DNA of 49,241 nt, from the IMG/VR virus record IMGVR_UViG_2721755711_000006. One strand, written 5' to 3'. This stretch comes from a virus. Taxonomy: Duplodnaviria > Heunggongvirae > Uroviricota > Caudoviricetes. A program made the position numbers. Of this stretch, positions 36,001-42,000 are shown piece by piece. The number at the start of each line of letters is the position of its first letter. Within the stretch, counting starts at the first letter, position 1.

Positions 36001-39000
36001 GCCATGTTTTTCGCAATATCCGCGACCTTCACGCATCCGGCAGGAACGATAAGGCCACGGTTTTTCCCCAGTCTCCGCAAACGCCATCTCAGACCGTAAC
36101 TCATCCATCCGCGCCTGTAGTCTTGTTTGTTGTTCACGCAGGTTAAACGTCATCATCGCTGTCACCTCAGAATGTTAAGTTGTCACTGGATTTACCGAAT
36201 TCGTCAGACATGGCACCAAGACCAGACAGGATATCTATCTGTCGCTGTCGCCCACCTCCGGGAGCGGCTGGCTGTTGCCAGAAATCTTCGAAGTGACGAT
36301 CGGGTCCAAAAAACGTCGCGGTCTGCTTCACGAATTGTGTGCCGGTATTTCCTGTGGCACGTACCCAGGCGGCATAACGCCTCACGCCATCAAGCATGGT
36401 TTCGGGTGTCACACCTTCCCTGATTCGGGCTTTCCAGGCTTTGAAGGCTGCCGACTTGGAATTACCACCAGCACGTTTGGGGTATTCCTGCCAGGCCTGT
36501 TCAAATTCCGGTGAATATTCTTGTCGGGCAGAACGCGCTGGTGCAGACGCGTCAGCGGATGCGCCAATAGTGTTTTTAGTCTCATGAGTAATCTCATGAG
36601 TATTCTCTGTGTAATCTCCTGTATGAATGTTTGCGGGGTTTCCACATGACGGTTTGCGGTGATCCCGCATCACTGTTTGCGGTGTTTCCACACCACAGTT
36701 TGCGGGGTTTCCACAAACTTGTTCGCGGTATTGCCCTGCTTCAGATTGCGGCGTTCCCACATTCTTGATATTTGCGGCGCTGGACTCGTTGCTGTCAGCC
36801 TTCGTATCAGGTTTTACCTGTTCAATCAGCAGTGCTTCAAGCCGTTCAGTATTAATCCGGTAATGCATAATGGCAGGAATACCACGTAGCTTTTCTTCCA
36901 GAACACCAAGCGCAACAAGGCGCTTACGCGCAGTTTCCTGCTCATCGCGGGTTAATGCTGTCTCTGCTGAAATATCGGACTGGGTTTTATACATCCAGCC
37001 ACCATCCATACGGTTATGCCAATAGACAAGCTGTGAAAGAAAAACAGCCGCAACCGGCCCCGATCGCACTTTTCCTGCTTTCAGCTTTGCAAAAGCCGGA
37101 TTGTAAGCAATCGGGCGATCAAGCAATTTAATTAACCGGCTCACACGGCACCTCCCAGGCGTTTAAACATTTTTCCGGACTGAAACACCGCCAGTGGGTA
37201 ACTGATGGTGTAGTTACGCCCCAGTAATTCACACACAACCTTCTGGCTTTCTGTATTGACCAGGCAAACCCGCAGAACGTGACCGTTGCTGGTGGTGAAC
37301 CACTGCCCCACACGGGGGCAACGGTTGTATCGGTGATACAGGGAATTAACGACGCGGCGAATCATGGGTGCGCCTCCTTGTCAGAACCATTAAGTCTGGA
37401 GTCAACAAGTGCGGCCCCAAAAACAGCATCACCAACACGGTCGTACAGTTTGCTAGCCAGCGGAGATTCAACGGCCTTAAGCATTGGATAAAGCTGGCTT
37501 GTCCAGATTTGATGGATTTCACGCAAATGCAGGTATACGCCTCTGGCGTTTCGTGCGACAGCTGACATATCAGACGCATCGGCACCTGATAAACTCTTCT
37601 CCATCAGGTTAAAGGCGTTGATGTATGCCTCTTTGAACCTGGCTGCACGTTTGCCCGTGAAGCCCATTGCCAGGAACGCGAAGCCGTCGCGGGTGATGTG
37701 GTAGCAAGGAAGTTTGCGAGTACCGCCGTTGGGCTGGTGTACCAAAATTGATGTCTCCGCAAAATTGCGGGCACAAAACTCTGGAGAACAATCCAAAATG
37801 CGGATCTTTTTCAGAACATCGTCATGACGTTTAGAGAAGAAGTCAGCAACAGCCAAAGAAGATGTAACAACCTGACCATCAACGATGGCAATTTCAGGTT
37901 GAGTGAGGGTTGGGATCGTAGCCATGATGGCAGCCTCCGTATGCAATGGATAACTTCCACCACCGGAGGTTCCAAGCTCGCTGGTGGCGGACTGAACAGG
38001 GTTGGAACTACCGGCGCATACGGAAACCGGCGAGCCTTTCGGCTCCCCTGCCCAGCCCACCATAATTCTGGCGTGCGTGAACGTGGACGATAAAAAAGAC
38101 GCTGGCGCGTCAAATATCGCCGTATGCAATTCTGGGGTTCCAATCCCGGCCCCCGTTTTATAAGGGGCTTTTTTAGCATAGCCCAGAAAATCTGCATGAT
38201 CAATAATATCCTTAAGATGAGGGCACAATCCTAACGCACTGTGAAAAGGACAAATTTCAGTATGATTTATGAAATTTTCGTCAAAAGTAGTGACGGGATC
38301 ACGTACCACCAAGTGACCGTCAAAGATTACAAAGGTAAACTGAAAATAGATTGTTCGTGTATCGCTGCTGACTTCGGAAATATATGCAAGCATAGAGCAG
38401 CAATAATCACTGGAAAATATGGAAAGCTCATTGACAAAGATGACGTTGATTATCAAGAAGCCATTAATGCCACAAATCTGATTGCAGAACGAGGTATTCA
38501 GGCAAAATACCTTGAGCTTGATAATGAACTTAATGAACTCAAAAAAAGATTCAAAAATGAGGAGAAATCTATCAAAAATAGGATAAAAGAACTGATTAGC
38601 TAATTTTTCATCGATAGCAGCCCTCATCTTTGCATAATTTTGCTGAGCAGAAAAATACACCGGAATTGAGGAATCAACACATTGTACAAACATAACCATT
38701 TTGTTATGTTTTAACTCATGAACTACACTATCGAATACTACAGTGAAGAGGTCAGGCTGGAGGTCGACCAGCTTCCATTGAGTATGCGTGCCCGATACCA
38801 GCATCTTGTTGAACGCATGAAGATATACGGCAGCAATCTCGGAGAACCTCATACCAGTGCTTTCGGTAACGGGCTTTTCGAGCTTCGGATTAAAGGTAGT
38901 GATGGCATCGCACGCGTCTTTTACTGCACCCTGGCAGGAAAACGCATCATCATGCTGCATAGTTTCATCAAGAAGACCCAGAAAACCCCACCAGCCGAAC

Positions 39001-42000
39001 GCCAAAAAGCTGAAACCAGAATGAAGGAGGTAAAGCATGACTGGTAAACGTAATCCGCCAACCATTACACATGATGAAATGGCTGATAAATGGATGGAGG
39101 ATCCAGCTTTTAAAGCAGAATACGACGCCATCGCCGACGAATTTGCGTTGCTTGATGAAATGCTGGCAGCACGTAAAGAAGCTGGTTTAACCCAGGCTGA
39201 GATCGCTGAGCGTATGGGAACCAAAGCAACTGTCATCAGCAGAATGGAAAGTAATCTGGCGTCAGGTGTCAGTGGACCATCATTTTCCACACTGAAAAAA
39301 TTTGCCCGCGCAACAGGAAAAAAACTCCAGATCCGCTTCGTGTAAGTTTCCACCATTACGCCGTCACTCTGGCGGCGCTTCACACTCCACAAAATCACGA
39401 CGAAACAACCACAACGGACTGAAGCATTCATGCGAATAACCATCACGCAGGTAAATGACCCGCTGTGTTTCAGACTCCCAGCGTATAACGTGGACGCGAC
39501 GCCCTCTGCCATCGCGGAACCAGCGATTGAGTACTTGCATGTGTTACCTGTGAGCATAATTACACCTGCCAGCCCAGCGCCTGAAACAGGCCCATTTTCG
39601 GGTGATACCAGCGAGTACCTCGTGGTTCTGCTTCACTCATCATGCGATGAAAAGCAAACATGAAGGGTTCTACTGCAACAATCGCGCGACGAGACAATAA
39701 TCCGTCCGGCGTCATAAATTCATGGGTGTCGGTAGGGATCTGATATGCGTTCACCAGATTGCGGCATTTCGCATCTGACATACCTGTTTTCGCCACCAGC
39801 TGACGGTATCCTGCATAACCATCGCGTATGGTGCCTCTTTTGATTTGTTCGACAGTTTCGGCAACGTGGCTAACTTTTTCTTCCATCTTGTCGAGGCGTT
39901 TTTGCTGACGAACTGCTTCAAGAGCCATCGCGGCAACCATTTCGATTTCGCTCATTGATTTGCGCACCTGCTCTTCCAGTTCGCGCCAACGATCTACCAG
40001 GCGGGCAGTGAATTCCGGGCAAAGTTGTGCGACGACAATGATGCTGTCGCGTTTGCCTTGTTCGCCTTCGAAAATATATGCGTTTGTGAATTTGTTTTGG
40101 CTAAATGATTGTTCGTTCTCAACTTTTTGCATTGCAGGAAGTTGAATCACCCCGCGTTTTGCCAGACGCTCTATTGATATTCTGACATTGCCGTGTTGAC
40201 TTCCAACCAGCTCTGCGATTTCAACGCTGGTCATGGATACTTTGTCGTTAAAAATTGCGGTGTTCATCATTCAATCTCCTCAGGATGTTTCTCAAACCAG
40301 GCGTCAAGGGCGCGCTCGCTGGCCTCTCCTTCTTCAGGAGAAAGCTGCTCAATACTTATAAAACGGATGGATAAAACCGAAGGATTGGCGTTACGTATTG
40401 CCATCGCACCATTCACAGCTGCGGAACAGGGGCATTTGGCCTTTCCGATAATTGTCTCGGTATAAGTGCGGGCGTACTCTGAAACCACGTACGTTCTTCT
40501 GTACCACTGTTCGACCGGAATTTGTCCAACAGGATCTGAAGGGTTGACTAATTTTTGAGTGCTGCTAATGTTAAGCATGATCAATGTCCTTTAGTCAGAT
40601 GATTGAGGCCTTTTCCAGTCTGGTGATTAATGCCCTCCGGTTGGCGGTCAGGATCAGTGATTAATCGGGCGTTTATCATGGAACAGCTCCTTGAAGGTTG
40701 ATTCCAAAGGTAAGTCAGGACAGGCCGGGCTGGCCCACCTTAATCCGGCCCGGCTTTTTCTTTTCCTTTCGCTCAGTAACATTTGTCTGACCAAGTGCCC
40801 ATTGCCGCGCACGAAACAAGCAATCATTAAACATCGCTCCTTTGCGGCTGGCCTGCGAGCTACGGCGGTAGTAATCCAGTCCCCGGCATGCCCCCCCCTG
40901 GCAACAATTTCAGGGAAGCCCTCCGCCACCAGCTTTTCCGTTATGTGTTTGCAGATAAATTCTTCTGGAGTCATGGTTAGCCTCTTCAATTTGCCTGTCT
41001 TTTAACCACTTCAGGCTCGGTGGTATACTGGAGTTCTCACACAACCAGTAAGGAAATTACCTATGACTGATACAACTAAATTCAGCGTTGAAACCAAGCT
41101 AGACGGCCTTGAGGCATTACTTGGTTTATTGCTGTCGTCCCTTCCCATCCAAGAGCGAATAAAGCTCGCAGCATCCGGAATGGAGTTAATTAAAAACCTG
41201 AAAAGTCAGCCGCAACAGCAGAGGGAGCGAGGACAGGATATGTGTGAATACATCGCTGCCGTTCTGGATAACTCCATCAACCAGGATTAACCGAAAAACC
41301 CAAAGCTAAGGCTGTTTTTTCAGCAACAGTCCTTGCCTCCTGAATCTCTTCGTCGGTAAGGGCTGATATGGCCTCAAGAATGCATTCGATTCGTTCTTCG
41401 TTCATACTTCCTTACCTCCCCTCCCCCGTGTGCGCTAAGCTTGGATTTGATGTTTTGCGTAACGAATCAGGAATTCCATCTTCAGGGTGAGGGTAAAGAT
41501 CTGGCCTTAAGCCATGAGGCGTAACCTTCCATGCAACCACCTCACATACCCGTAAAACGAAACGAGCAGGAATTGTGCTTTTTGAAAACCACTGATTCAC
41601 CGCTTGCGGTGTCACACCAAGATTTCGCGCTATGGCATTTTGCGCAATTAATGCACGAAGTTCGTCGTAATCATTTCCTTTCATAACAAATCACCAAGAT
41701 AAACTTAATGAATCAAGAATACATCAAGTTTAAATTAACATGCAAGTTGCAAAAGGATCGAATACACTAAAATCAAGTAAAGATTTACCCTTGTAAAGAA
41801 ACCCACGGGACCTGGTCATGAAGAACGTCAAAAACACAGAAAATAGAATAGCCGCAATGCTGAAAGCAAAAGGATGGACTCAGGCTCAGCTGGCCCGTAA
41901 GCTGGGGGTGAGTGCGCAATCAGTGCAGTACTGGACCACAGGAAAAACATTTCCACGGAGCGATAAGCTTGCGCAGTTATCAGAGATTAGCGGTTATCCA

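Follow-up and report, generated by a model that had tools for sequence, protein, structure and literature searches.

Independent occurrence of a SWIM zinc-finger gene and a Gp49-XRE toxin-antitoxin pair that share one slot of a lambdoid prophage

Introduction

When three small genes stand side by side on one strand of a prophage, do they form a single system, or have separate cargo genes come to rest in the same place? This question is raised by the IMG/VR virus record IMGVR_UViG_2721755711_000006 (Caudoviricetes), whose whole stretch of 49,241 nucleotides (nt) is referred to below as the window. An island in it encodes a small protein with a SWIM zinc-finger motif, a toxin of the Gp49/HigB type and an antitoxin with an XRE-type helix-turn-helix (HTH) domain. 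A previous reading of the DNA, made without database searches (hereafter the sequence-only reading), had delimited the island at 38262-39345, which is exactly the distance from the ATG of the SWIM gene to the stop codon of the antitoxin gene, and had proposed that the SWIM protein might turn the toxin-antitoxin pair into a three-component unit. Here, we report that the pair and the SWIM gene are distributed independently of each other. The island very probably consists of two independent lysogeny cargo units (morons), a Gp49-XRE module and a stand-alone SWIM cassette, placed in one hot spot on the strand opposite the early-right (PR) operon. The attractive three-component hypothesis is corrected accordingly.

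Distribution of the pair and of the SWIM gene

The absence of the SWIM gene from homologous islands, which the sequence-only reading had itself set against a three-component unit, was found in EC11, in 18 Escherichia coli genomes, in phages, and in Salmonella and Edwardsiella. A megablast search with the pair (38660-39345) recovered it from 18 of 5426 complete E. coli genomes, always with at least 95% coverage, and a SWIM gene lies beside it in none of these 18. No near match to the SWIM cassette was present among the same 5426 genomes; two distant E. coli matches (65.8% at the nucleotide level) proved to be SWIM genes that lack the pair. The pair without the SWIM gene was also observed in the Shiga toxin (Stx) phages POCJ13 and 75/02, in phage PhiR5_2, and in Salmonella and Edwardsiella. 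Conversely, SWIM homologues with no such pair beside them were seen in about eight other settings, among them the same slot and the position directly behind a cI repressor gene. Apart from the window, the two were adjacent only in L004 and L005; these are copies of this prophage at 98.9% identity and thus are not independent evidence of an association.

The closest relatives locate the boundary between the two units. To the right of 38660, the window and E. coli EC11 share 99.6% identity; on the left, EC11 continues directly with the small RNA (sRNA) gene isrK and carries no SWIM gene. In TUM9812 (88% identical), homology breaks off after 38168, where isrK has its 5' end, and starts again at 38664; SWIM is missing there too, such that 38169-38663 represents an insertion or deletion that holds just the SWIM gene. 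At the junction of the two cargo units, between SWIM and the pair, by-eye reading revealed a decayed second isrK promoter segment; the live isrK promoter of EC11 and TUM9812 can be aligned with it, and the copy beside isrK in the window has a similar sequence (Table 1). The functional promoter copy is followed by CATGATCAATAAT, which is common to the isrK-SWIM unit of the type found in E. coli RM8082. Because the window holds two isrK promoter-like copies, we read the island as a tandem fusion of an RM8082-type and an EC11-type unit, that is, of two cargo units that normally alternate in one slot. Base composition also sets the two apart, since the G+C content (GC) is 0.35 in the SWIM cassette and 0.46-0.49 in the pair. 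The previous description of an AT-rich island therefore holds for the SWIM gene (GC 0.348) and the spacer after it (0.342), but not for the toxin (0.485) and antitoxin (0.463) genes, the window as a whole being at 0.507.

Table 1. Location of the island, its control elements and the surrounding genes in the window (aa, amino acids)
Feature	Position	Strand	Evidence or remark
AT-rich SWIM cassette	38205-38659		missing in EC11 and TUM9812, in which isrK and the toxin-antitoxin promoter adjoin
SWIM zinc-finger protein, 113 aa	38262-38603	plus	Pfam SWIM PF04434, E=3.6e-6, 26.8 bits (cut-off 19.6)
CxC-x8-CxH motif (C31, C33, C42, H44)	38352-38393	plus	sole invariant columns of the 42-sequence family alignment
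Decayed second isrK promoter segment	38642-38677	minus	keeps -35 TTGATT, -10 lost; by-eye reading
Predicted toxin-antitoxin promoter	38682-38710	plus	TTGTAC 38682-38687, 17 nt, TATGTT 38705-38710, 7 nt, ATG
Inverted repeat, predicted operator	38688-38711		perfect 9-nt arms, 6-nt spacer
Gp49/COG4679 toxin (Tad/HigB-type, RelE-fold), 109 aa	38718-39047	plus	PF05973, E=2e-25
Shine-Dalgarno AGGAGG of the antitoxin gene	39025-39030	plus	strong; inside the toxin 3' end, 6 nt before ATG 39037
XRE-HTH antitoxin (Ata/HigA-type), 102 aa	39037-39345	plus	HTH_3 2.7e-11; phrog_1373 5.6e-36
isrK sRNA	38092-38168	minus	Rfam RF01394, 57.9 bits (gathering score 50)
isrK intrinsic terminator	38111-38098 + T run	minus	at the isrK 3' end
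isrK promoter TTGATC-17-TATGCT	38175-38203	minus	read from sequence
C4 antisense RNA, P1 immI type	37980-38067	minus	Rfam RF01695, 82.9 bits (gathering score 45)
Rha/AnrP-like antirepressor (left)	37362-37946	minus	Phage_pRha 3.3e-26; phrog_821 1.6e-105; downstream of isrK and C4
DUF4222 gene	39364-39540	minus	PF13973 2.1e-15; convergent with the antitoxin gene, stop codons 18 nt apart
Rha/Ant-like gene (right)	40270-39560	minus	Phage_pRha match
O-like replication gene	37144-36167	minus	early-right operon
cro-like gene	41684-41412	minus	early-right operon

The toxin-antitoxin pair

Profile searches of the three open reading frames (ORFs), as proposed in the sequence-only reading, returned Pfam SWIM, Gp49 and HTH_3 for the respective ORFs (E-values in Table 1). 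By family membership, the pair is an ordinary representative of the Tad-Ata/HigBA (Gp49-XRE) type II toxin-antitoxin modules. For the toxin, expected from sequence alone to be a Gp49/HigB-like protein of the RelE superfamily, the Pfam match reached 89.1 bits against a cut-off of 23.9 and covered positions 2-90 of the 90-position model (residues 15-103). Its best match in the PDB was Streptococcus pneumoniae HigB (6AF3_A), with E=1.6e-5 for the single sequence and 9.6e-10 for a profile of 22 homologues, and the same profile reached Mycobacterium tuberculosis HigB1 (7NBU, E=1.3e-4). For the antitoxin, the PDB search ranked HigA of this complex first (6AF3_B, 8.6e-5); that the best matches of both partners fall in one complex supports the assignment of the pair to the HigBA type. 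The antitoxin HTH occupies residues 44-98 and is preceded by an N-terminal extension. As had been noticed previously, the genes overlap, by 11 nt, the toxin gene being first, and the order is the same in phage N15 and in all homologous loci.

The toxin is 92% identical to its counterparts in the Stx phages POCJ13 and 75/02, 72% identical to the 'HigB' of phage PhiR5_2, and 45% identical to N15 gp49, the namesake of the Pfam family. N15 gp49 has been placed in the COG4679/DUF891 family of Tad toxins, whose Ata antitoxins are Xre/Cro-type HTH proteins (Makarova et al., 2009; PMC2701414), and the N15 and SXT homologues of tad-ata are attributed there to Dziewit et al. (2007). In S. pneumoniae HigB, ribonuclease (RNase) activity is lowered by R68A, R73A, F90A and, less strongly, K92A (PMC7984235). 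These four residues align with R57, R66, F83 and K85 of the toxin, when the numbering of the PDB chain is corrected for a 20-residue tag offset that was deduced from the match of all six named residues. In the 22-sequence alignment R57, R66, H81, F83 and K85 are invariant; since the equivalents of the HigB RNase residues are all conserved, the catalytic residues of the RelE fold, a lack of which the sequence-only reading had regarded as evidence against a toxin, are present.

The family is very large, since a word-seeded search retrieved 2061 proteins at E<=1e-8; a length of 107-111 aa is shared by most of the 120 homologues listed. All aligned members start with M-x-Y-T-I-x-Y-Y, which indicates that the 109-aa protein from ATG 38718 is the correct one. 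The shorter starts of public annotation (87 or 76 aa) were rejected, as the Pfam match covers residues 15-103 and the N-terminus is conserved in the 22 homologues. In PADLOC, no significant full-length match was found for the toxin, the nearest being NsnC with 1.2e-8 over 49 residues. The PhiR5_2 copy (L020, position 3501) carries ATA instead of ATG at the toxin start and has kept the promoter, the repeat and the remaining gene; this copy may have been inactivated. On the whole the pair adds little to current knowledge, being one more member of a family of more than 2000 homologues that has already been characterised by experiment and structure.

Control region of the pair

The 8-bp inverted repeat that had been described 7 nt before the toxin ATG is real as stated, and its arms actually extend to 9 nt (AAACATAAC at 38688-38696 and GTTATGTTT at 38703-38711). 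When the 60 nt before the toxin gene were shuffled 20000 times, 42 of the shuffled sequences contained a comparable repeat, and eight are present in the whole 49-kb window. We aligned the upstream region of seven lineages with different flanks (the window, EC11, TUM9812, a Salmonella contig, PhiR5_2, POCJ13 and an Edwardsiella chromosome). The repeat core ATAAC-N6-GTTAT was invariant in all seven, which include copies from E. coli, a Shigella phage, Salmonella and Edwardsiella, and so were TTG of the -35 element and the -10 element TATGTT. Between the -10 element and ATG-AAC-TAC there are always exactly 7 nt, variable in sequence and free of a Shine-Dalgarno motif. With the ATG only 7 nt after the -10 element and no Shine-Dalgarno motif, the toxin mRNA is probably leaderless. 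The inverted repeat overlaps both the promoter spacer and the -10 element, and we infer that the promoter is repressed by the HTH antitoxin at this repeat.

The SWIM protein and its family

The small protein with a CxCx(n)CxH motif, as it had been recognised from the sequence, is confirmed by a Pfam match above the cut-off and by the invariance of the two CxC cysteines, the third cysteine and the histidine (Table 1); the motif is a predicted zinc-binding site. A GTG start at 38241 was rejected, since all homologues begin at the position of ATG 38262 and M1 is nearly invariant. The protein falls in phrog_13130, for which no function is annotated. An AlphaFold2 model based on the 42-sequence alignment had a predicted local distance difference test score (pLDDT) of 97 and a predicted template modelling score (pTM) of 0.84. 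It comprises three strands and a short helix that bear the zinc ligands, followed by a C-terminal helical hairpin. Comparison with solved structures yielded none like the whole protein, a sequence search of the PDB was also without match, and the best match among viral models was another 'SWIM zinc finger protein'. Profile and structure searches gave neither an HTH nor a SecB-like match. In PADLOC there was no significant full-length defence match (PDC-S62 gave 1.7e-4 over the SWIM motif alone), tblastn against 50,697 phage records gave no match, and nothing relevant was found in the literature on small SWIM proteins in prophage defence.

No convincing sigma-70 promoter was seen upstream of 38262, either in a consensus scan or by eye. 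A perfect 8-nt inverted repeat (AAATTTCA / TGAAATTT, 38252-38277) brackets the start codon of the SWIM gene; it may be a chance feature of AT-rich DNA, or it could keep the start region of the mRNA inaccessible.

At E<1e-3, an exhaustive HMMER search gave about 110 representatives of the family, almost all of which are stand-alone, 105-135 aa long and alignable over their full length. Their genomic contexts differ widely. In E. coli RM8082 (51% aa identity) the SWIM gene occupies the same slot, divergent from a Rha gene after a stretch homologous to isrK/C4, and ymfL is next to it. Two homologues (L015 and L016, 46%) lie between a replication gene and a DUF4222 gene, and two others (L023, 2000-2338, 38%; L024, 4001-4333, 36%) follow a cI-like Peptidase_S24 repressor gene at a distance of 31-45 bp and in the same orientation. 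Others were found in a Mu-like tail region (L021, 41%), a P4-like element (L022, 35%) and a P2-like lysis/tail junction (L006, 31%). A chromosomal branch (L007-L014, 27-30%), from contigs of metagenome-assembled genomes and metagenomes, one of them labelled Gammaproteobacteria, is located in conserved smc-zipA-ligA clusters. There the start of the SWIM gene overlaps the stop of ligA, which encodes the NAD-dependent DNA ligase; for example, in L007 (5001-5363) the reading frame of a 120-aa SWIM protein opens 11 nt upstream of the ligase stop codon. This suggests translational coupling to ligA. A Gp49/HTH pair was not observed beside the SWIM gene in any of these sampled contexts. There was also no conserved partner; the 146-147-aa products of the genes downstream in L006 and L021 have no detectable similarity and no Pfam match.

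It is most likely that the SWIM protein is an autonomous factor that is expressed in the lysogen and binds nucleic acid or protein. The strongest hint is the position behind cI in two phages, and the ligA-coupled chromosomal branch points to a link with DNA transactions. That the gene provides a new single-gene lysogen function, be it a superinfection exclusion or anti-phage factor or a modulator of host DNA transactions, and that, secondarily, the leaderless toxin mRNA sets the toxin:antitoxin ratio, is a tentative proposal to which we give the lesser weight.

Relationship with the isrK-C4-Rha module

Two RNA genes that are absent from the sequence-only reading, isrK and C4, lie directly upstream of the left Rha gene, which is driven by these RNAs. 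The island had been placed between two Rha-like genes. Both flanking minus-strand genes indeed match Phage_pRha, but the DUF4222 gene intervenes on the right, and isrK and C4 on the left; the island does not simply lie between two Rha genes because on the left it borders directly on the promoter of an antirepressor operon under RNA control. The isrK and C4 RNAs also precede Rha genes in EC11, TUM9812 (in two tandem copies), Salmonella (L025) and PhiR5_2, and isrK was detected at L001 3983-4059, L002 3979-4055, L025 2925-3001 and L020 3422-3501, i.e. in four independent lineages. In the Edwardsiella copies, a C4-like sRNA-Xcc1 and a Rha gene are found a few hundred bp to the left of the pair. 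This toxin-antitoxin subfamily seems to travel beside RNA-controlled antirepressor modules.

Could the pair then be tied to the isrK-C4-Rha module, and not to SWIM, with the antitoxin bound at a shared divergent region modulating the isrK promoter and coupling the pair to induction, until the insertion of SWIM uncoupled them? The arrangement in EC11, TUM9812, the Salmonella contig and PhiR5_2 would favour this, as the isrK 5' end is about 75 bp from the toxin ATG and the -35 elements stand back to back, a few bp apart. The Edwardsiella arrangement agrees with it, and at 5 of the 12 E. coli matches listed for the pair the matched stretch is annotated with an 'ash family' or 'Rha family' gene. 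However, the inverted repeat, as read from the sequence, lies upstream of the isrK -35 element, a poor position for repression, and about 2 kb separate the pair from the nearest C4-like RNA in the POCJ13 group. In the window itself, 495 bp have been inserted between the pair and the isrK module, and neither unit was lost. Moreover, in RM8082 it is the SWIM gene alone that occupies the slot divergent from the Rha module, and therefore a cargo hot spot fits better than a functional link. We consider such coupling improbable. The position divergent from the isrK-C4-Rha module is better described as a slot into which cargo is swapped: the pair, the SWIM gene, or both.

The three-component and antisense alternatives

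A true three-component system, in which SWIM would act as a regulator, sensor or chaperone like the third genes of the toxin-antitoxin-chaperone (TAC) or PaaR-PaaA-ParE systems, is very improbable. The three genes are adjacent and on the same strand, and the trio has been kept in two more copies, which are those of the same prophage mentioned above. Against this, SWIM is missing beside the pair in all 18 pair-bearing E. coli genomes as well as in four other genera or phages, and SWIM lacks the pair in every other context sampled. The pair retains a conserved promoter and a predicted operator of its own, and GC as well as the promoter remnant separate the two units. The proteins themselves do not fit either model: the antitoxin ends four residues after its HTH and thus has no C-terminal extension of the TAC type for chaperone addiction, and the third gene is neither a Paa-type regulator, the SWIM protein having no HTH, nor SecB-like.

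Several points nevertheless weigh against two separate units. A scan recognised no terminator between the SWIM and toxin genes, and read-through may lead to their co-transcription in this prophage; a lineage-specific functional link between SWIM and the pair may likewise exist and would be compatible with the comparative data. The contexts of SWIM homologues come from a small sample of about nine independent ones. The consensus promoter scan did not call the toxin-antitoxin promoter, which it missed because the weak -35 element matches at 3 of 6 positions. Furthermore, toxicity, neutralisation, operator binding and expression are all deduced from the sequence. Even with these points considered, two independent cargo units remain the much better account of the island.

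A minus-strand stop-free run of 756 codons (37365-39632), the fourth longest in the window, crosses the three island genes in antisense, from the antitoxin gene to SWIM, continues over isrK and C4 and enters the left Rha gene. Across the pair, the frame also stays open in EC11, TUM9812, L004 and POCJ13, whereas it is interrupted in PhiR5_2 and N15 does not have it. It is because of this run that public coding sequences labelled 'ash family' or 'Rha family' in EC11 and TUM9812 begin inside the toxin gene. That the frame is a real, long N-terminal extension of Rha and the plus-strand ORFs are secondary is hardly credible and was rejected, since the plus-strand genes have strong family matches, invariant residues and a confident fold, the antisense translation has no family match upstream of Rha (NCBIfam gives only the Rha domain, residues 106-207 of the 281-aa extended ORF), the frame is not kept in PhiR5_2 or N15, part of it consists of RNA genes, and TTA, CTA and TCA codons are simply missing from the SWIM and toxin genes. 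The antisense frame is probably an annotation artefact, and the public 'ash/Rha family protein' annotations of this region are artificially extended through the RNA genes and antisense into the toxin gene.

Genomic setting

The window is a nearly complete lambdoid prophage that adjoins the transfer-messenger RNA (tmRNA) gene (698-1060), as judged from Rfam and the ORF map. Its early-right operon is on the minus strand, and the ORF map bears out the previous view that three plus-strand genes are embedded antisense to it; they sit between the DUF4222 gene and the left Rha gene. Elsewhere in the window, an IS009 sRNA match (3336-3534, minus strand) and, within the prophage late region, a tRNA gene (29765-29836) were observed.

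Proposed roles of the two units

If the island is composed of two independent cargo units, the first (38682-39345) would work as follows. The toxin would be a ribosome-associated mRNA endoribonuclease with a RelE fold, neutralised by the N-terminal part of the antitoxin, while the antitoxin HTH would bind the 9+9 repeat in the module's own promoter and autorepress the operon. The leaderless toxin gene would be poorly translated and the antitoxin gene efficiently translated from AGGAGG, so that the antitoxin would be in excess despite the toxin-first order. Once the unstable antitoxin is lost, either because an infecting phage shuts down host transcription or because the element is lost, free toxin would arrest translation, with abortive infection or prophage addiction as the outcome. 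The second unit (about 38205-38659) would be a separately acquired AT-rich cassette that carries a single-gene SWIM cargo found in many prophages and acts alone in the lysogen.

The residual interest of the locus is modest and lies in the small SWIM family, in the probably leaderless toxin, and in the recurrent adjacency of this toxin-antitoxin subfamily to modules of the isrK/C4 type. The SWIM family is uncharacterised, and with its confident fold and its positions in prophages it is a reasonable candidate for a phage-challenge screen.

Comparison with known systems

In phage lambda, the rexAB genes are located behind the cI repressor gene. The SWIM genes of L023 and L024, likewise behind a cI-like repressor gene and on the same strand, resemble this cargo in position, whereas SWIM is a single small protein that has no similarity to Rex in sequence or fold.

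The module to the left of the island corresponds to Gifsy-1 isrK-orf45-anrP and P1 immI (c4-icd-ant), in that isrK and C4 lie directly upstream of a Rha/AnrP-like gene (PMC4825925). In the window, the upstream ORF is in frame with Rha, similar to the fused form noted for S. dysenteriae (PMC4825925).

The M. tuberculosis TAC system (HigB1-HigA1 with a SecB-like chaperone), whose HigB1 is a detectable homologue of the toxin, shows that a HigBA pair can gain a third component. Its third gene is a downstream one for a SecB-like chaperone that is matched to a C-terminal extension of the antitoxin, whereas the extra gene of the window is an upstream one for a SWIM protein. S. pneumoniae HigBA (6AF3/6AF4) is the best solved match for both partners, and its RNase residues have invariant equivalents in the toxin; HigA of this system binds palindromes in the higBA promoter (PMC7984235). 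It differs from the window pair in its low sequence similarity, in the longer N-terminus of HigB, and in being chromosomal and not phage-borne.

The closest systems also include the Tad-Ata group (Paracoccus pAMI2 tad-ata, N15 gp49-gp48 and SXT s044-s045), with which the pair shares a Gp49/DUF891 toxin, an XRE-HTH antitoxin, the toxin-first order, overlapping or abutting genes and carriage by temperate phages. N15 gp49 has a canonical Shine-Dalgarno sequence, CAGGAGG, whereas the toxin subfamily of the window has none and looks leaderless. Finally, N15 is a plasmid prophage, for which stabilisation by such a pair is obviously sensible, whereas the prophage of the window is integrated.

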